From an archaeon (GTDB lineage: Archaea; Asgardarchaeota; Thorarchaeia; Thorarchaeales; Thorarchaeaceae): a stretch of 32,000 nt of DNA. Location: positions 30,001 to 62,000 of the forward strand of contig JAJRZD010000005.1 of the NCBI GenBank assembly GCA_024275415.1. The letters run 5' to 3'. Of this stretch, positions 187-23,671 are shown piece after piece. Below the pieces are notes generated by a model that worked only from the letters and a program-made list of their open reading frames with translations, was not told the DNA's origin and searched no databases. A program made the position numbers and the translations under genes. The number at the start of each line of letters is the position of its first letter. Position 1 is the first letter of the stretch.

Positions 187-630
187 CTATTTCTTCTTTT
201 TTGAGGTGGTCTTCTTTGTCTTAGCCTTTGGTTTTGCAGGGGTTTTGGTCTTGGGTTTTGCCTTTGTCTTAGTTTTCGCCTTCGACTTGGTGGTACTCTT
301 CTTCTTCTTCTCGGCTTCTCTCTCTATCTCTTGCTCATCCATAAGGGCGTCCACAGCATCGAGAGCTTCTTTTGCTTCAGACTCCGAGAAACCCTCAAGA
401 TCCCCTGGCTTTCCAATCCTGATTGTCACTATCGCGTTCTCTCCGCGCGGACGCATTTCCCAATACATTTCCAATCCAGGCTCATCTGACATGAATTGTC
501 CCAGCATTTCGGTCCACGCGTTCTTCACGTCATCAATGTTCGTGTACAAGAATTCCATGAGAGGGATTGATATCTCGACGTTCAGGACCTTTCCATCGAC
601 TATGTGATAGTTCTCAATGTCCCAAGGCAT
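187..630 (-). CDS. Hypothetical protein: acidic ~100-aa domain plus a 40-aa Lys/Thr/Ala/Pro-rich tail
   Basis: ATG 628-630, TAG 187-189. The last 40 residues contain 21 Lys. It lies on the same strand as the giant gene, 68 nt downstream of it. Confidence 0.75.
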   Translation of the reverse strand: MPWDIENYHIVDGKVLNVEISIPLMEFLYTNIDDVKNAWTEMLGQFMSDEPGLEMYWEMRPRGENAIVTIRIGKPGDLEGFSESEAKEALDAVDALMDEQEIEREAEKKKKSTTKSKAKTKTKAKPKTKTPAKPKAKTKKTTSKKKK

Positions 631-698: not shown

Positions 699-3600
699 CT
701 ACTCTGAAACATCATCTTTCTTGTCTTTCTTGAGAAGCGACTCCACCTCTGCAATGAATTCATCCTTCGGATCCACTCTCTCTTTTTGTTCGGTTTTCTT
801 CCTTTTCTTGGCAGGTTTTTTCTTTGCTGGTGCTTCGTCCGGCTCAGAGATAGTGTCTGCTTCAATCTCTTCGTCAAGAGTGGTCTCTTCTGATTCGGGG
901 ACTGTCGTAGCTAGTTCCATGTCATGAACATCGGTCAATCCCATGCCCTGTCGTTGTAATATCGTATGGATACCGATGGGTGTGATGATCCCTTTCTCAG
1001 CCATGCTCATGAAAATGTCCAGAACTTCCATTTCTGACTTGTTGAGCAGGTTGGCCACAGGAGCAAGATAGTCTTTCACCTCAAACTCGGTCTGGTCACC
1101 AAGAGAGGCTTGGACATACTTGAACACCCTCATCTCATCCTTCTCTCCCTTGACTGAAGGGTTAAGGGTGTGAGGAATCATCATTTGATAGTTCAGTACT
1201 GTGTAGAGATTTGACACGATCCATTCGGGGTTGAAACAATCGACCAGTCCAGTCCACTTGGCTAGGTCATTCTTGTACTGTGACTCGAAGAGTTCGACGA
1301 AGAACTGCAAGCGGTCTCGTACCTCCTGAGTGATGCTAGAGTCACCAATCAATATCGCAAGGCAGTTCTCTCCTACCCTACTGTTTAGAATGAGGCCCTG
1401 ATAGTTGATTTCCTCAAGAGTGCCCATCTCGCCATTCTGTTTTATCTCACCATACATACTTGTTATGGCAGAGATGAACCCACTGATGAGGTCTGCCTGT
1501 ATCCTCGACTCACCAAAGGGGTGGTAGAAAAGGCATGTCCCTCGACCTCTGTAGACTATCATAAAGTGTCGTAGTGATGCGAGGATGTTGAAGTAGTCAT
1601 ATTGTGCCTTTTTACTGGCGAACATCTTTGCGCGGGACGCCCTGCTTCGTTTGGCCAATAACACTCCTGCAATAAGTCCCCCTAGCATCAAATAGAACAG
1701 TGGGTTATAGAATAGTGATAGTATCTGTATCACCATAACGCCAACTGGGTCTGCTATCACTTCTCGTGTGAGTGTACTTGTGGACATTGGCCACAGGTCA
1801 CGCCTCCCGTGGTACTTTACTACGACGGAAACGGAGGTGGCAGTGCCTTCTTCTTCTGGGACGACATAGCTGAGTTCAGCGACCCCGTTACTGTCCGTGA
1901 CACGGCTCAACGTGACGGTCAGGTTGTGGTCGTCCTCGAAGGTGACAGTGATGACGAACTCCACGGTCTCGTCTTCTAGGGGCTGCTGGACCCCGTCGAG
2001 CAACGTCGCTCGGATGACGATGGGTGCGTCCCTGACCACGTTCCCCACATACTCTACCGACAACGTGGGTGTGCCCTTCTCGTCCACGGTCAGCACCGCA
2101 GATGCAGTCCCTTCGTCACAGCCCTCTGCCACAGCTGAGAATGCGACTACGTACACTCCTGGGGAGTTGGTGATGTGGTAGTCGAGGTAATAGGTCTCGT
2201 CACCCTCCGAATAGGACATCTGGTAGGAAACACCGTCGATCGTGACGTTGACTGTCCCCCAATAGACAGGGAGGTCTCTATCAGAGTCGGTGAAGGTCAC
2301 TACGAACGTGATGGTCTCGTTCTCGTACTCGGTGTAGGTACTCTCTGAGGTGAGGGAGGTATGCAGGGCACGTACAATGATACCTGTGTCTATGACTTGG
2401 GAAGAGTAGTTCTCCTTGGAGAGGGTGAAGGTCAACGTGTGCGTGTCCAGCGACAGCATGACCGCGCTTATCGTGAAGGTGAACCTCCCAGCCACGGGCT
2501 CGGAATACGTGAGTGCTGACCCAGACCATGAGAACGACTCCCCGCTCGGGTCTATTAGTCCGTCCGTGTGGTCGTTGACGTACTCCACAGTGATCTCGAC
2601 CGTCTGGTTGAGGTACAGCACATCCGGGATAGTGTTCTCTGTGAAGACTAACCTCGTGGGGATGGGTTCAACGGTGAGCGATACCTCGCTCTTGAAGACC
2701 ACGTACCCGTGAGTGTAAGCAGAGATGTTACCGTCCAGCGTGGTGACCCCAAGCTCAGAACCCGTGAAGTTGAGGGTGTACGTCCCGTTACCTAGATCCG
2801 TAAGGGGGTGCACAGCCGTGCTGGTGGTCAGGTTCACCTGCATCCCTGGGAGGTAGTTGGAGTCAGTGTCCTGCATGGTAAGCCTGAGCTCGACCCATCC
2901 ATCATAGTAGATGGTCTGTGTGTCGAACCCACCGATGACTGTAATGACCTGTCCAGAGGTGGGGGTCTCTATGACCTCCACGGTGACCGTGAACGTGCGG
3001 TTGATACTGCCGTACCGCCACGTCCATACCTCCATCTGGTATGTCCCCAGCCCGTCCTGCCCGTCGAAGAGGAACTGATAGACCCCTGCACCGACATGGG
3101 CAAGGACATAGTCCGTACTCATATAGGTGGCATTGACAAGGGCATCCGTGATAGGCTGTCCGAAAGAGTCTAACACTGTCACGTCCAACGTCTGCGTGTG
3201 GGTGTAGTATATCTGGGTGGTCGTCCATGATGGCGTCACAGAACCACTGTCTATGACGATATACAATGTGTCTACTTGCCTTCCGGTGTCGTACCCTGTC
3301 TTGTTAGCCATGACCGTGGCGTTCCACGTGCCCAGCCCTATCGCTGAGGCGTCAAGGGTCAGGTGCCAACGCTCGTCTGTTGCCGAGTAGGTGAAGTCGT
3401 ACACGGTCGTGGTGTTGACGTACAGCCTGACTGTTGCCCCAGGGATGGGTAAGCTGTCGAAGGTGTAGATGACAGAGATGTCCACGGTCTCGAAATAAGT
3501 CGCGTTCAGGTCTGATGGGGAGATCCAGTCCACGTAGAACGTGTTCGGTGCGATGGTGATGTTGAGACCTGAAGTGGTGTTTGTCTGTCCCACATAACCG

Positions 3601-6020
3601 AACGACCACGCACTAATAGATGCAGAGTATGTCCCGATACCAATGTCCTCCCCTGGGATAGTGATGTTCCATACCGTGCCCGTATAGGTCAGGTCGTAGG
3701 TCACACCGTCAATGGTCACGTTCACCACCGCAGAGGGCACGTCTCCCCCGCCATAGGCGTAGTCCACCTGGAGGTTCAGGGAGTCCGTGTATATTATCGT
3801 CACGTTGGATGGTGTCCATATGACAGTCAGTGGTGACGTTGGCTCCTTGTGGATGGTCAGGGCCTGTGTGTCGTCGAACCTCGGGACATGTTCGGCCCTC
3901 GATGCAGAGATGTTCAATGCGTGGGTGGCAAACCCGAGCCCGTCAGTCCCGTTGAACTGGACCCAGTAGAAGCCCGCAGGGTCGTACTGTAGTGTCCACG
4001 TGGTCGTGTAGTCAGTGACTGTGACGAGGGCGTTCTGGACGATGGTGCCGTTGGCATAGCTGTATTGCACCGTCAGGTTTGTGTTCCCGATATAGCTGAT
4101 GTTGTCAGTGTTGGACCATGCCACCACGAGGGGTAACGTGTCATAGGTCAGGGTCACGTCAATGGTGATGCTCTGGTTCTCGATAGCGGACCCGCTCCCG
4201 TTCACCCTCACTTGATAGGTTCCAGCAGAGTAGCCTGTTGTGGAGATAGTGGCTGTCCACGTGCCGTTGTTGAGGTCAGTCATCCCTGTCCATGTCCCTC
4301 CATCGAAGGAATACTGGACTATGACCCCTGCGTATGATCCGTCTATCCCCTTCGGTGTGAAGGTATCGTCAAAGTCCACCCTGACCTCGAAGGTGCTGTC
4401 AGTAAAGGCGTCTATTGTCGGGTCTGCCGGGGTCAACGTCGTGGGGTAGAAGACCACGAACTCCTTCGTCAAGTACCCAGCCTCCGTGCCGTTCGTCCAA
4501 TAGACCTCGATGCGGTAAGTCCCGTTGTTGGACGTGTCGAGGTCAATGTCCCATGTGTAGGACGTAGCACCGTTGGTGACGGACTGGTTTGCAGGGTTAT
4601 ATACCACGGATGTAGAGTCCCAGATGGTGAGGTTCGTAGTCCCAGACGTGGCATTGGTCAGCGTACCGTCTTGGATGGTGTTAGTGATGAGGAGGTTGTC
4701 AGTGATGCTCACCGTGTCCAGTGATATGATCCCTGTGACGTAGTTCGGTGCGGTGGACACCAGTGACCACGTGCCGTTGCCCATGCTCGACACCAAGACA
4801 GTGTTCCCATCAAGCAGGTATGTGGTGTGGTTGGTAGGGTCTGTCCCGTTGTATAGCCCAGATGTGGTCCAGTCGTCCTGCTTGGTGAGGTTGAGGTATC
4901 TGCTCTGGGACTGGCTTGGATATGACACAACAGTGGTCAGGTTCCACATCACGTCGCCCCCGCTCACGGGAACGTCCCACACTGACTGTGCAGGAACGTC
5001 TTTCCTGTACCACAACGTGAGGTTGTGGTATATCCCGACGGACTGGTTGGAGTCGAAGGCGATGGAGGAGATGTTGGTGGGGCTCGTCCACGAAACACTG
5101 TTCCCACTGAGAGGGGTGCCGTTCGCACGCAAAGAGACCTCAGCGGGCTGGAACACCATCGGGAGGTTCGAGGACTGGTCCCAGGGCACGTAGGTGTAGT
5201 TCAGCAAAGCCTCGTACGCTTGGTTCTGGCTCCATGCATTTAGCTCTCTCGTGTAGAACCTCGTTTGGAACGCCCCTGTGGAACTCTCGGAGTTCCAGAT
5301 TATCATCGGGAACGCTGGACCACTCTTCTGCAAGGCGTTCCCGTCGATCAGGGCATAGTAGGTGCTGTCCCCCGTGAGGTTAGCGAGGGCTGTTATCGTC
5401 GTCCATACACTGCTACCTTCGTACACTAGTGCCTGTGGGCTGGTGACGTTGGAGGAGGAGAGGGCGTAGTCAGAGCGGACGACGAAGTAGGCATCCCCAT
5501 AGAGGGACGGATTATAAGTCGGTGTGCTGTGGAAGACGGAGTAGTTCAACAGGAGCCCGTCGTGGGGCTGGGCGTAGAAGCCCTGTGCGAGCTGCGTCAC
5601 GTTGGAGAGTGTGTCTTCCCTGATGTAGAAGTTCTGGGTCTGGTCGATGCTCCCGACGACCTCCCTTTCCACGATGGCGGTGAGGTTGTCTATGGTCATG
5701 TCCGCCCTGTACAGCGTCCAGCCTGCCATGTGGAACTGGGTGAGGTCCACTGTCCCGTTGTGCTGTGCGGTGCTGGCGTAGCTGTTCGTGACGGTGAAGG
5801 TCTGCCCTGTCACTTCCCGGGAGAAGTGCTGGACAGCTGTGGATGTGTTACCTTGACCGGAGGCCGAGGAGATAGAATGCACCGAAATGGCGTCCATCTC
5901 GATCACTTCACCATTTGAATCATTGAATAACGACAGTTCTTTGGGTTTGTCTGCAAGAGGAGTGCTCAGAAGAATGAGAAGACACAGTGCTAGTACAGGC
6001 AAGATGGTTTTCTGGTTCAT
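699..6020 (-). CDS. Giant type-I membrane protein: signal peptide, N-terminal domain, about 9-10 Ig-like repeats, one TM helix, cytoplasmic longin domain, winged helix, acidic/basic tail
   Basis: The ORF track starts at 6095, but ATG at 6020 has GGAGG 10 nt upstream and begins a signal peptide (MNQKTILPVLALCLLILLSTPLA). Thr/Val/Tyr-rich ~100-aa beta repeats (e.g. TDLNNGTWTATI, TDLGNGTYTLNF) carry many NxS/T sequons. TM: LFYNPLFYLMLGGLIAGVLLA followed by KRSR. Longin motif: GTCLFYHPF...DLISGFISAITSMY. Confidence 0.9.
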   Translation of the reverse strand: MNQKTILPVLALCLLILLSTPLADKPKELSLFNDSNGEVIEMDAISVHSISSASGQGNTSTAVQHFSREVTGQTFTVTNSYASTAQHNGTVDLTQFHMAGWTLYRADMTIDNLTAIVEREVVGSIDQTQNFYIREDTLSNVTQLAQGFYAQPHDGLLLNYSVFHSTPTYNPSLYGDAYFVVRSDYALSSSNVTSPQALVYEGSSVWTTITALANLTGDSTYYALIDGNALQKSGPAFPMIIWNSESSTGAFQTRFYTRELNAWSQNQAYEALLNYTYVPWDQSSNLPMVFQPAEVSLRANGTPLSGNSVSWTSPTNISSIAFDSNQSVGIYHNLTLWYRKDVPAQSVWDVPVSGGDVMWNLTTVVSYPSQSQSRYLNLTKQDDWTTSGLYNGTDPTNHTTYLLDGNTVLVSSMGNGTWSLVSTAPNYVTGIISLDTVSITDNLLITNTIQDGTLTNATSGTTNLTIWDSTSVVYNPANQSVTNGATSYTWDIDLDTSNNGTYRIEVYWTNGTEAGYLTKEFVVFYPTTLTPADPTIDAFTDSTFEVRVDFDDTFTPKGIDGSYAGVIVQYSFDGGTWTGMTDLNNGTWTATISTTGYSAGTYQVRVNGSGSAIENQSITIDVTLTYDTLPLVVAWSNTDNISYIGNTNLTVQYSYANGTIVQNALVTVTDYTTTWTLQYDPAGFYWVQFNGTDGLGFATHALNISASRAEHVPRFDDTQALTIHKEPTSPLTVIWTPSNVTIIYTDSLNLQVDYAYGGGDVPSAVVNVTIDGVTYDLTYTGTVWNITIPGEDIGIGTYSASISAWSFGYVGQTNTTSGLNITIAPNTFYVDWISPSDLNATYFETVDISVIYTFDSLPIPGATVRLYVNTTTVYDFTYSATDERWHLTLDASAIGLGTWNATVMANKTGYDTGRQVDTLYIVIDSGSVTPSWTTTQIYYTHTQTLDVTVLDSFGQPITDALVNATYMSTDYVLAHVGAGVYQFLFDGQDGLGTYQMEVWTWRYGSINRTFTVTVEVIETPTSGQVITVIGGFDTQTIYYDGWVELRLTMQDTDSNYLPGMQVNLTTSTAVHPLTDLGNGTYTLNFTGSELGVTTLDGNISAYTHGYVVFKSEVSLTVEPIPTRLVFTENTIPDVLYLNQTVEITVEYVNDHTDGLIDPSGESFSWSGSALTYSEPVAGRFTFTISAVMLSLDTHTLTFTLSKENYSSQVIDTGIIVRALHTSLTSESTYTEYENETITFVVTFTDSDRDLPVYWGTVNVTIDGVSYQMSYSEGDETYYLDYHITNSPGVYVVAFSAVAEGCDEGTASAVLTVDEKGTPTLSVEYVGNVVRDAPIVIRATLLDGVQQPLEDETVEFVITVTFEDDHNLTVTLSRVTDSNGVAELSYVVPEEEGTATSVSVVVKYHGRRDLWPMSTSTLTREVIADPVGVMVIQILSLFYNPLFYLMLGGLIAGVLLAKRSRASRAKMFASKKAQYDYFNILASLRHFMIVYRGRGTCLFYHPFGESRIQADLISGFISAITSMYGEIKQNGEMGTLEEINYQGLILNSRVGENCLAILIGDSSITQEVRDRLQFFVELFESQYKNDLAKWTGLVDCFNPEWIVSNLYTVLNYQMMIPHTLNPSVKGEKDEMRVFKYVQASLGDQTEFEVKDYLAPVANLLNKSEMEVLDIFMSMAEKGIITPIGIHTILQRQGMGLTDVHDMELATTVPESEETTLDEEIEADTISEPDEAPAKKKPAKKRKKTEQKERVDPKDEFIAEVESLLKKDKKDDVSE

Positions 6021-6368
6021 AGGTTTGCTTCCTCCATTGTCACCTTTGTTAGTCCCCTGTATGTATCGTGATGGTTGTTCGTGTGTGAAGGGCATATACT
6101 AAATCTATCCAATGGACAAAAATCGCACATCACGATATTTCTTTTGCATTCTCTTATATCATTGTTTAGGGGGAAGGTTCTCATATGAATACCTCAAGTA
6201 GAGGGGTGCCATTGCGATGCTATAGAGCTGTGATGGCAACCGGTTTCCGTGGTTTATTACTCCAACCAGAATGGAAATTGAAGATATATACGTATCTCAA
6301 TTAGCATGCATTCGATTAATCGAGCTGTTGGGATGGACGACCATTCGGTTTTACATCTAGTTAGTGGT

Positions 6369-6887
6369 TCATGTGTAGTACGATGGACCCGCTTCATCCG
6401 ATGAGGGAGGTGTAAGTGCTGGACTTCCCACGACCTCATTTAGTATTGCAATCACCATATCAACTGCTCCGTGTACTCTCCGCATCGTCCGCCACAACCT
6501 GTCATCTGAGAAGGCATCATCATACAATCGGTCTGACACCACGAAGCCTGGTCCCGGAGGTCCTTGTCCTTTTGGCTGGCCAGGTTTCGGCTGTATGAAC
6601 CCAAGGATGATTCCTTGCTGGAAGCTGAACTTGAGGGCTTTCATCTGGAATTGCTTCATCTTCTCTGGAGTAAGTACCTTGAGGTGCTGGGGCGAGATCA
6701 TGACTTGGGACTCGACTTGGATATACCGTTGCTCATTGGGTCTGACCACTGTAAAAAAGAAGCGCATGTATTTTACTTTGAACAAGAATTCCGCTCGTGC
6801 ATTCGAGATGCTTTCGACCTTGACCCCTTCATTAGAGAACCAGTTCTTCACTGAGTTCTTGACCATCTCTGACATATCTTCACTCAT
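6369..6887 (-). CDS. DUF2299-family conserved archaeal protein
   Basis: The pattern VKNWFSNEG...AEFLF...VVRP...ISPQH...RLYDDAFSDDRLWRTMRRV matches the remembered DUF2299 profile. Confidence 0.7.
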   Translation of the reverse strand: MSEDMSEMVKNSVKNWFSNEGVKVESISNARAEFLFKVKYMRFFFTVVRPNEQRYIQVESQVMISPQHLKVLTPEKMKQFQMKALKFSFQQGIILGFIQPKPGQPKGQGPPGPGFVVSDRLYDDAFSDDRLWRTMRRVHGAVDMVIAILNEVVGSPALTPPSSDEAGPSYYT

Positions 6888-6942
6888 TTTCGCACACTCA
6901 GCCTATTGTCTGAACTCTGGGCTACCACTTAATGGTTGTGTT

Positions 6943-7758
6943 CTACTCTCGCATGAACTGGATTTGGTCGTATCGCTCAGGAACCCTGTCCTGCCAGCAT
7001 GTGATTTGCTCTCTCACATCCGATATCATTGAAGTATCCCCTTTATTCACAAAGACCGCCACATCGCTGTTTATACGAGTTCGTCTTACTCCCCATGGAT
7101 CAACGAGCTGGCTGTGTCCGAAGTAGGTCTTCCCATCGAAGCCAAAGCCTACCCTATTCACCGCGGCAAAATACACCTGATTCTCGATAGCCCGTGCCAT
7201 GACCAGAGTGTCCCAGTGTTGTGATCTTGGATCCGGAAATGCAGCGGGCATTATGATCAGTTCAGCACCGTTGGTGGCAAGGCTCCTTGTCAATTCAGGG
7301 AAACGCACATCATAGCAGATTTCCAGTCCTACCTTGATTCCTCCAGCGTCCATGACGACTCCGGTATCGCCCCCTTGAAAAGTATTCTTCTCGTCTTGGA
7401 ATGGGTGCAGTTTCCGATATGTAGCGACAAGATTCCCGTGAGGGTTAGCAACCATGAGGGTGTTGAAGTACTTCTCACCAGCTGATTCGATGTCAGTGGC
7501 TACGACATACGCAGAATGCTCTTCAGCGACCTGCTGGATGAAATCGCTTGTAGCGCCCAAGATTCCCGGCCCTGCTCTTTCATAGTCGCTGTATCTGAAT
7601 CCTATTGCAAAGAGCTCAGGTAGTATGATGAACTCGCGATTGGCCGAAGTCTTATGTTGCGCAAGCATCTCCTTTGCCAATCGAAAATTCTCTTCTCTGT
7701 TCCCTTCCTTGCACGGCATCTGAACAAGTGCAACGCTGAAGTCCAAGGAATCACCCAT
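6943..7758 (-). CDS. Carbon-nitrogen hydrolase (nitrilase superfamily, Nit/omega-amidase-like)
   Basis: Intact Glu-Lys-Cys triad: LPELF, YRKLHPF, EICYDVRFPE; also ARAIENQ and HSQLVDPWG. Start set to ATG 7756-7758; the track uses an upstream GTG. Confidence 0.92.
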   Translation of the reverse strand: MGDSLDFSVALVQMPCKEGNREENFRLAKEMLAQHKTSANREFIILPELFAIGFRYSDYERAGPGILGATSDFIQQVAEEHSAYVVATDIESAGEKYFNTLMVANPHGNLVATYRKLHPFQDEKNTFQGGDTGVVMDAGGIKVGLEICYDVRFPELTRSLATNGAELIIMPAAFPDPRSQHWDTLVMARAIENQVYFAAVNRVGFGFDGKTYFGHSQLVDPWGVRRTRINSDVAVFVNKGDTSMISDVREQITCWQDRVPERYDQIQFMRE

Positions 7759-22477: not shown

Positions 22478-23671
22478 TCACATTGTAAGCTGGTTCCACT
22501 GTACATTCTGAGATATCTTCGGATACACCTGCTTGAGCTCGTGCATGACCTTTGAAATAATCGTGTTCGTAGGCTCTGAGCCAATCAGAATGCTTATTCT
22601 TTTCGTGATGAACTGCATCAAAGCTCTTAAACCATCACTGAGGATATCAGGCAGGATCTTGCCTTTAGTGGCAGCACTGGAAAGGGAACTACGAACCACC
22701 ACATCAATGTCCTCTTCGAGATCGACGAAGGAAAGCCAAGTGTATGTGTCCATCAATGCGTTACGTGACTCCACGAATATGTTCCGTGTCATCTTGTTCC
22801 CTAGCAGTCTTGCGCAGTTGGACAGGATCTCCTGTAGCACACTCGAATGTTGTACCAGAGTGGCTTGTGCCTCCGATACCCTCTCTACCGCATCCTTTTC
22901 CGCAAGCATGGCTATCTCGTCAAGGAACCTTCGCAGGTCACGGGTCTTGACTTTCTCAGCAGCTATCGCGAGGGGTGTTTCTCCATCGAGTTCACTGAGC
23001 GCAGCCGTGGTTTCTGGAGAAACCCCATCGATGACCTTCTCAGTCCTCTCTAAAGAGGTTGTTTGATAGATGTCCTCTGGTCTGACCGGATTGGTAAGCA
23101 CCACTGCCTTTTCCCAAATTGCGTTTGCAACAATGTTCATTGCGACCTCCAAAGGTATCTCAAGGAACTCAGCTGCTTCTCTCACAGAGATAGTTTCCGG
23201 AAGGAGCTTCAGGAATGAGTCCACTTCTGGGTTTTTTACATAAAGATCCCAATTCAGCTTCTGGCGAATAACACTGTCGGGCTTTACCTGGTCTAAGAGT
23301 AGCTCATCGATTACATGTTTCTCGTATCTGCTGTAGACTGCCAAGTCAATGTCGACCCAGCGTAGCAGATTGAATTGTTCCTCGAAGATCTCAATAAGTC
23401 GCCTAAGCTTGTCTCGTAGGATTTCATCATCCATTGACGCGCTGAGCGCACCGATCGTCCATTCTCCAAACTCCACCAGGATCTTGTAGTCCGTGCCTTC
23501 GAACGCCCGCGCTCGTGATGAAATCGATTGGTTCGCCTCGTCGAAGAACGAGGTCATGGCACTGATGAATGAGGAGATGAGGTCTGGGTCGAAGATTGCG
23601 TCAGTGAAATCCTTATGATACATGCATAGACCTGTTTCTCGCTTGATTATGTACAGGCTCTTGATGTTCAT
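22478..23671 (-). CDS. Soluble longin-domain protein with two winged-helix units and a helical C-domain (NPRL2-like architecture)
   Basis: N-terminal longin motif: SLYIIKRETGLCMYHKDF...DPDLISSFISAMTSFF. wHTH units: SVREAAEFLEIPLEVAMNIVANAIWEKAV and LDGETPLAIAAEK...LAEKDAV. Confidence 0.85.
   Translation of the reverse strand: MNIKSLYIIKRETGLCMYHKDFTDAIFDPDLISSFISAMTSFFDEANQSISSRARAFEGTDYKILVEFGEWTIGALSASMDDEILRDKLRRLIEIFEEQFNLLRWVDIDLAVYSRYEKHVIDELLLDQVKPDSVIRQKLNWDLYVKNPEVDSFLKLLPETISVREAAEFLEIPLEVAMNIVANAIWEKAVVLTNPVRPEDIYQTTSLERTEKVIDGVSPETTAALSELDGETPLAIAAEKVKTRDLRRFLDEIAMLAEKDAVERVSEAQATLVQHSSVLQEILSNCARLLGNKMTRNIFVESRNALMDTYTWLSFVDLEEDIDVVVRSSLSSAATKGKILPDILSDGLRALMQFITKRISILIGSEPTNTIISKVMHELKQVYPKISQNVQWNQLTM

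Follow-up and report, generated by a model that had tools for sequence, protein, structure and literature searches.

The 32,000-nt stretch of DNA analysed here (hereafter the window) is G000:C45:30001-62000 of a thorarchaeal metagenome-assembled genome (MAG), and all coordinates given below are window positions unless another locus is named. Its reverse strand carries a giant open reading frame (ORF), the predicted product of which consists of a signal peptide, a very large extracellular part (a distal N-domain followed by a stalk), a single transmembrane helix and a cytoplasmic tail with a longin domain. Inside this ORF lies a block of about 4.0 kb in which the G+C content at third codon positions (GC3) and the choice of synonymous codons depart from those of both ends of the same gene, and the limits of this block coincide with the extracellular part of the protein. 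We infer that the step was made by import, that is, by in-frame homologous replacement of the extracellular block in a gene of clade B (the group formed by the window gene and its nearest relatives, P0003-P0006) already present in the slot, with an unsampled, GC3-rich source as the donor. This reading, with its direction and its donor, is given an even chance of being correct. Exchange of ectodomain segments in this gene family is real and is documented below.

Plain G+C content (300-nt windows) is 0.53-0.60 over positions ~1800-5900, against 0.44-0.48 on either side within the ORF and 0.43-0.51 elsewhere in the window. The sliding GC3 profile (60-codon windows) displays a clear step, with values of 0.42-0.48 in codons 1-90, 0.62-0.90 in the ectodomain and 0.43-0.63 after codon 1411; the contents at first and second codon positions (GC1 and GC2) are nearly flat along the ORF. 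Calculated by segment, GC3 amounts to 0.40 (codons 1-63), 0.758 (codons 64-1405) and 0.54 (codons 1406-1798), and the three-segment model gains 42-45 log-likelihood (lnL) units, compared with 12.3 for the best of 300 codon shuffles. The maximum-likelihood change points (Table 1) agree with the switches in G+C content that had been placed near 1790-1800 and 5880-5900 in an initial annotation of this DNA. At single-codon resolution, the 5' step is sharp and lies ~15 codons past the signal peptide. The 3' step fades across codons 1405-1436, 17-48 codons ahead of the transmembrane helix, and according to the alignments its junction sits within the final extracellular domain, where clade B has a conserved motif. 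Among the host ORFs of at least 300 codons the giant gene ranks 2nd of 1342 for such a step, and the block is the longest stretch with a G+C content of at least 0.53 in the 3.53-Mb assembly (GC3 mean 0.50, standard deviation 0.057).

The GC3 expected of the block from its amino acids and the codon usage of the genome is 0.486 versus 0.758 observed (z = +20.6), and the shift is present in every amino acid; the ends of the ORF match their expected values (z = -1.7 at the 5' end, +1.3 at the 3' end). Amino-acid bias, which the initial annotation had already considered insufficient, is therefore rejected as the cause of the high GC3. Thermosome, elongation factor (EF-1alpha and EF-2) and RNA polymerase genes were used as the highly expressed set in place of the ribosomal-protein operon, for which a Pfam L2 search gave no match in the host MAG. 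This set has a GC3 of only 0.53-0.65 and uses GGT/GGC for Gly, with GGG at 15%, whereas GGG makes up 52% of the Gly codons of the block (21% in the genome); in addition, AGG makes up 54% of its Arg codons, NCC codons are preferred, and GGC and TCG are reduced. The relative synonymous codon usage of the block correlates with that of the highly expressed set with r = 0.56 and with that of an island on contig C10 of the host, its closest match, with r = 0.77. Translational selection or high expression is rejected on these grounds. Highly expressed genes with the GC3 of the block, like a profile without a step, had been named as refuting the initial proposal, and neither was observed. Two controls dispose of a general trait of glycosylated ectodomains: GC3 is flat at ~0.48 in the second giant glycosylated surface protein of the host genome, a paralogue (on contig C38; 2599 aa, 67 sequons), and the difference in GC3 between ectodomain and tail is -0.09 to +0.11 in 20 orthologues versus +0.20 in the window gene. 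Dinucleotide relative abundance was uninformative, being driven by amino-acid content; its sole signal was a GpC depletion common to the block, TnpB and integrase.

A likelihood scan of the host genome returned ~15 genes or gene parts with the codon signature of the block. The carriers include a TnpB gene, an rve integrase, several ORFans and the C10 island, and the share of GGG plus AGG separates them from native high-GC3 metabolic genes. Several further intragenic composition steps were found in this MAG by a genome-wide scan, and a UvrB-like gene also shows an intragenic step. The C10 island (L042, G000:C10:60000-71000, ~3600-7200), with a G+C content of 0.56-0.63 over a 1027-aa ORFan, also extends over the first ~170 codons of the gene that follows (1243 aa, without a Pfam match) and so forms another such step. 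On contig C77 (L045:1371-4004), codons 1-480 of an M1 aminopeptidase gene combine a GC3 of 0.74 with the GGG/AGG signature, and GC3 is ~0.55 afterwards. ORFs at C39:5950-6892, C39:2774-3731, C53:2797-3709 and C110:84238-85219 (all in G000) have a GC3 of 0.87-0.95 in their first 40-60 codons only.

Exchange of ectodomain segments was observed in the sister pair P0004/P0005. The two loci are syntenic, with flanks that are 86-90% identical in DNA (P0005, L032:10001-15397; P0004, L036:10001-15403). The genes themselves are 81% identical in codons 1-60, unrelated at silent sites over the following ~430 codons (codons 61-490, third-position identity 0.30-0.40), 74-94% identical in the rest of the ectodomain and 98-100% identical in the last 225 codons. 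The last value lies above that of the flanks and suggests that the tail was recently exchanged in a second event, which would make the pair a three-part mosaic. The 5' breakpoint of the replacement (codon ~61) is at the same place as the step in the window gene, and the P0005 N-domain has a low GC3 (~0.3) that is foreign to its gene and groups with low-GC lineages. Conserved ends with an unrelated middle, the pattern that the initial annotation had proposed to look for in close relatives, are thus seen in this related pair.

Exchange is also recorded in the trees of the distal N-domain. That of the window gene is nearest not to clade B but to the one in the same-genus genome G006 (64-65% identity; support 97 in the tree). 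Monophyly of clade B is rejected for the N-domain by the approximately unbiased (AU) test (p = 1.8e-13), the members being scattered over the N-domain tree. The incongruence is confined to this domain, the types of which are shuffled across the whole family. The N-domain tree is scrambled relative to that of the tail within the family, in support of the ectodomain swapping put forward in the initial annotation; the stalk tree is congruent with that of the tail.

Syntenic orthologues were found in 22 of the 24 family genomes searched. The genes flanking the giant gene are closest to those of the same-genus genome G005 (70-95% identity), with lower values for G041 (46-88%). The giant gene itself has its nearest relatives in P0003-P0006 (51-55% identity over the full length), which lie at other genomic places, and G005, the nearest genome available, is only 42-49% identical to it in this gene, too distant for a comparison like that of P0004 with P0005. 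Synteny with G005 and the closest identity to it hold for the flanks on both sides, so that a simple one-sided misjoin does not explain the block. In the slot, G005 keeps three tandem giant surface-protein genes (L013, L040; G005:C1:164500-193499), and differential loss of tandem paralogues could explain why the window gene is not of the genus type. The corresponding slot of G041 is without a giant gene, its 147-aa and 172-aa genes being adjacent (L039, G041:C1:1286000-1303000, 5995-6894); the clade-B gene of this genome, P0005, is located ~670 kb from the empty slot in a different context. In G001, the orthologue (L028, G001:C64:3000-9000) is split into overlapping ORFs at 24-2913 (959 aa) and 2842-4507 (546 aa), and the gene may be broken, or the split may stem from a frameshift or a sequencing error.

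In the proposed replacement, ~4.0 kb (codons 64-1405, nearly the whole extracellular part) would have been exchanged in frame by homologous recombination, the incoming allele having come from a Thorarchaeote not yet sampled or from a pool of mobile genes. The donor DNA would have had a GC3 of ~0.76 and a preference for GGG, AGG and NCC, and the recipient would have retained its signal peptide, transmembrane helix and longin tail. Both partners would have belonged to clade B, as homologous exchange requires, and the donor allele would already have joined a G006-type N-domain to a clade-B stalk. The uniform composition from the N-domain to the end of the stalk is as expected of one imported piece.

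Results from phylogeny, protein composition and donor searches weigh against this replacement. The stalk tree (320-1400) places the window gene in clade B with P0003-P0006 (support 100), and the tail tree (1453-1745) places it with the same four proteins (100/99; 99 with the shorter tail, 1501-1745), so that the separate trees for ectodomain and tail suggested in the initial annotation reveal no split. Identity to clade B is 0.56-0.60 in the ectodomain and 0.44-0.49 in the tail, the same as among the clade-B members. With stalk and tail in one clade and their divergence proportionate, the trees offer no positive indication that the two had separate histories. Grouping of the tail with the same-genus orthologues was rejected (AU p = 0.013), although the flanks are closest to G005; the transmembrane-longin tail, which had been described as resident, would therefore be so only if the slot had been occupied by a clade-B paralogue beforehand.

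Across orthologues GC1 follows GC3 (r = 0.94), and the content of Gly, Ala, Arg and Pro (GARP), that of Phe, Tyr, Met, Ile, Asn and Lys (FYMINK) and the ratio I/(I+V) behave likewise. The GC1 of the block is 0.481 versus 0.532 predicted at its GC3, which is 5 residual standard deviations low, and its GARP content is 0.185 versus 0.229 predicted, a value that fits a background GC3 of ~0.5. Since both are low for its GC3, the block DNA has not been long resident in an ordinary GC-rich genome. Either the donor was a close relative with silent sites shifted recently, or a local process acted on silent sites in place. The protein encoded by the M1 peptidase gene on C77 is closest to G005 over its whole length in spite of the signature in its N-terminal segment, and a signature of this type therefore need not mean distant import.

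Neither a donor nor a second assembly of the allele was found in a set of 5.8 billion proteins, short fragments, Joint Genome Institute (JGI) metagenomes and GTDB genomes; the best ectodomain match anywhere is P0003, with 59% identity. Orthologues from GC-rich Thorarchaeota prefer GGC and not GGG. G010, G018, G019 and G021 from among these were rejected as donors because of this preference and because their ectodomains are only 34-45% identical. P0003-P0006 are nearest (56-60%) and were rejected as well, the GC3 of their genes being ~0.5-0.6 and the G+C content of their genomes 46-48%. A search of the host genome (93% complete) for silent or orphan copies of the ectodomain returned only the C38 protein (25% identical) with tblastn and only the gene itself with blastn.

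What stands of the initial proposal, a foreign cassette recombined into a resident chassis, is that the block is foreign in codon use, in frame, bounded near the signal peptide and the transmembrane helix, and marked with the signature of mobile-gene islands. Against it are the unsplit trees, a tail that did not prove to be resident, the lack of a donor, and amino acids unlike those of DNA with a long history in a GC-rich genome.

Because the amino-acid composition is not GC-shifted and no donor was found, two rivals are retained. The first is a synonymous drive in situ, which we regard as rather unlikely: homologous exchange in the population would be concentrated in the ectodomain because of diversifying selection on the outside part, and GC-biased conversion or another repair bias, with no foreign donor, would have recoded the silent sites of 1340 codons from a GC3 of 0.5 to 0.76 without altering protein composition. 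Other segments of the host genome would bear its mark as well, among them the N-terminal part of the M1 peptidase gene, the protein of which looks vertically inherited. Such a drive fits the amino acids, GC1 and GC2 of the block, all of which correspond to a background GC3 of ~0.5, the identical composition of N-domain and stalk despite their different phylogenetic affinities, and the agreement between the block limits and the topological boundaries of the protein. In P0004-P0006, GC3 peaks locally at 0.67-0.77 where the ectodomain is best conserved, which points in the same direction. For bacteria, recombination has been proposed to be linked with GC3 (Lassalle et al. 2015, PMC4450053). Prokaryotic GC-biased gene conversion resembles the present case in that silent-site G+C content increases where recombination occurs and protein composition does not change to match. 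The window block differs from it in its GC3 jump of +0.26, its sharp edges, its length of 4 kb and its preference for GGG, AGG and NCC. The increase in GGG with a decrease in GGC is, moreover, not a plain AT->GC push; the signature recurs in islands with TnpB, integrase and ORFan genes, and these are inherently imported; and the effect is absent in 20 of 20 orthologues and in the C38 surface protein. To our knowledge, no such silent-site drive mechanism has been shown in archaea.

The second rival, which is improbable, is a chimeric assembly, in which the assembler would have switched to a co-occurring relative of higher GC3 for the variable ectodomain and switched back afterwards. The host MAG (3.53 Mb in 127 contigs, completeness 93%, estimated contamination 4.5%) is the only assembly that holds the allele, and the other intragenic composition steps occur in the same MAG, all of which would suit an artefact. 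However, two switches would be needed, both in frame, yielding a topologically sensible protein and regaining the same syntenic context, and sequences with a GC3 of 0.4-0.55 and of 0.76 would share few long exact k-mers. The bin contains no alternative low-GC copy of the ectodomain, and mosaics of the same layout are present in independent assemblies of relatives, one of them on a 1.55-Mb contig. The recurrence of intragenic composition steps in the host MAG nevertheless warrants a read-level check before evolutionary claims are made.

Displacement of the whole gene, that is, arrival of an entire clade-B gene from another lineage, signal peptide and tail included and with its GC3 patchiness already present in the donor, is improbable too: a clade-B stalk and tail between genus-type flanks, clade-B genes at other places in G041 and relatives together with the empty G041 slot, and the patchy GC3 of clade-B genes themselves would agree with it, but the step would then have to be explained in the donor instead, signal peptide and tail are at host codon usage, and loss of tandem paralogues, of which G005 has three copies in the slot, explains a clade-B gene without transfer.

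The features of the giant gene and its neighbours are collated in Table 1. Translation probably starts at the ATG at 6018-6020 (M26), giving the product on record, P0002 (1773 aa). From its modelled and predicted features, the gene appears to encode a receptor-like surface protein that is conserved across the Thorarchaeota family and built of signal peptide, jelly-roll domain, stalk with N-glycosylation predicted from sequons, transmembrane helix, and longin domain with a helical module. The extracellular part of ~1400 residues contains much Thr, Ser, Val and Gly, and the protein has 52 N-x-S/T sequons. Residues 64-330 were modelled as a beta jelly-roll (predicted local distance difference test score, pLDDT, 87) with weak matches to carbohydrate-binding and adhesin domains; a Foldseek search of the N-domain against the PDB gave nothing below E 1e-3. 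With Pfam, the giant protein gave only Ig-like matches below threshold, to Big_1 and Invasin_D3 (19.4 bits at a cut-off of 33 and 16.4 at a cut-off of 34.9).

Table 1. Position of the giant gene, its parts, the composition block and the adjoining genes (window positions)
Feature	Position	Strand	Remarks
Giant ORF, receptor-like surface protein	699..6095	(-)	1798 codons
Signal peptide, residues 26-48, then short linker to residue 63	5952..6020	(-)	Hydrophobic N-terminus in translation; GC3 0.40, native composition
5' composition junction	5829..5915	(-)	Maximum-likelihood change point after codon 63 (~5906); 2-lnL interval codons 61-89
High-GC3 block, codons 64-1405, ~4.0 kb	1881..5906	(-)	GC3 0.76; composition uniform from N-domain to stalk end
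Distal N-domain, residues ~110-310, predicted beta jelly-roll	5166..5768	(-)	Structure model and trees
Stalk of beta-sandwich repeats, residues 311-1404	1884..5165	(-)	Alignments; nearest relatives P0003-P0006, 52-70% identity
3' composition junction	1782..1916	(-)	Maximum-likelihood change point after codon 1405 (~1880); interval codons 1394-1438
Single transmembrane helix, residues 1453-1480	1656..1739	(-)	Translation; orthologues have a transmembrane helix at the same relative position
Cytoplasmic longin domain, residues ~1490-1612	1260..1628	(-)	AlphaFold model and Foldseek; GC3 ~0.55, native composition
Helical, winged-helix-like module, residues ~1623-1715	951..1229	(-)	Secondary structure of the model, after the longin domain
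Charged C-terminal tail, predicted disordered, residues ~1716-1798	702..950	(-)	Model pLDDT <50 for 1722-1745; 1746-1798 from translation alone
Downstream gene, 147 aa, lysine-rich tail	187..630	(-)	Neighbour of the giant gene throughout the family; 80% identity with its G005 counterpart
Upstream neighbour, 172 aa	6369..6887	(-)	Marks the syntenic slot; 85% identical to the G005 copy

The AlphaFold model of residues 1490-1745 (pLDDT 84, predicted template modelling score 0.78) comprises a longin domain followed by the helical module. Foldseek matched this model to Fuzzy/Inturned, adaptor protein (AP) sigma subunits, zeta-COP, Mon1-Ccz1 and Sec22b with a probability of 1.00, E values down to 5e-5 and template modelling scores by target of 0.45-0.66. 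The Pfam longin and Robl_LC7 models gave no match to the giant protein at E up to 0.1, and the label "longin" that had been attached to the tail holds at fold level. Four further longin paralogues of the tail occur elsewhere in the host genome, and the N-terminal domain of a soluble 397-aa protein encoded at 22478-23671 (-) shares 30% identity with the longin segment of the giant tail. In 19 other family genomes, the fetched loci have a homologue of the downstream 147-aa gene (46-80% identity) next to the giant gene; the 147-aa product may be a partner of the cytoplasmic tail of the giant protein.

As a kind of event, the mosaic surface-protein gene is well known in bacteria, pneumococcal and neisserial surface proteins being among the examples; the present instance concerns an Asgard family of receptor-like proteins that carry a longin tail. 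Mosaic genes of bacteria formed by partial horizontal transfer or homologous recombination have been described for Fusobacterium adhesins (PMC10995627), and the method and definition for such genes are given elsewhere (PMC3241670). Read as a mosaic, the window gene shares with bacterial mosaic adhesins an in-frame inner segment of other composition or ancestry between retained ends, exchange of the exposed part and breakpoints near domain borders. It is unlike them in being an Asgard gene for a single-pass, receptor-like protein with a cytoplasmic longin domain, in having no donor found and in the congruence of its stalk and tail trees. Programmed cassette switching (silent copies of the pilin or variant surface glycoprotein type, orphan modules of polymorphic toxins and contact-dependent inhibition systems) is comparable as an in-frame part-exchange of a surface protein at conserved junctions. 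It differs in that the host genome holds no silent or orphan ectodomain copy (tblastn, blastn) and in that exchange in the family takes place between lineages and not within the cell. The tail has the longin fold of eukaryotic and Asgard proteins such as the N-terminal domains of AP sigma and mu, zeta-COP, Mon1-Ccz1, Fuzzy-Inturned, Sec22b and NPRL2/3, but in the window gene this fold is fused behind a transmembrane helix to a giant extracellular domain. Neither the gene family nor a block of this type in Asgard archaea was the subject of any paper returned by the literature searches.

Asgard archaea have been studied chiefly for their eukaryote-like intracellular proteins. The present gene family couples such an intracellular module, the longin domain, to a very large glycosylated domain on the outside of the cell. 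Family-wide scrambling of the N-domain is solid evidence for exchange of the outside part, and the block in the window gene, if it is an import, would be the largest and freshest such event; had it arisen in place, it would represent a rare, localised silent-site drive in an archaeon. If the outside part swaps between lineages and the inside signalling part is kept, these cells would be able to diversify what they bind or expose (partners, viruses, surfaces), as bacteria do with their adhesins.

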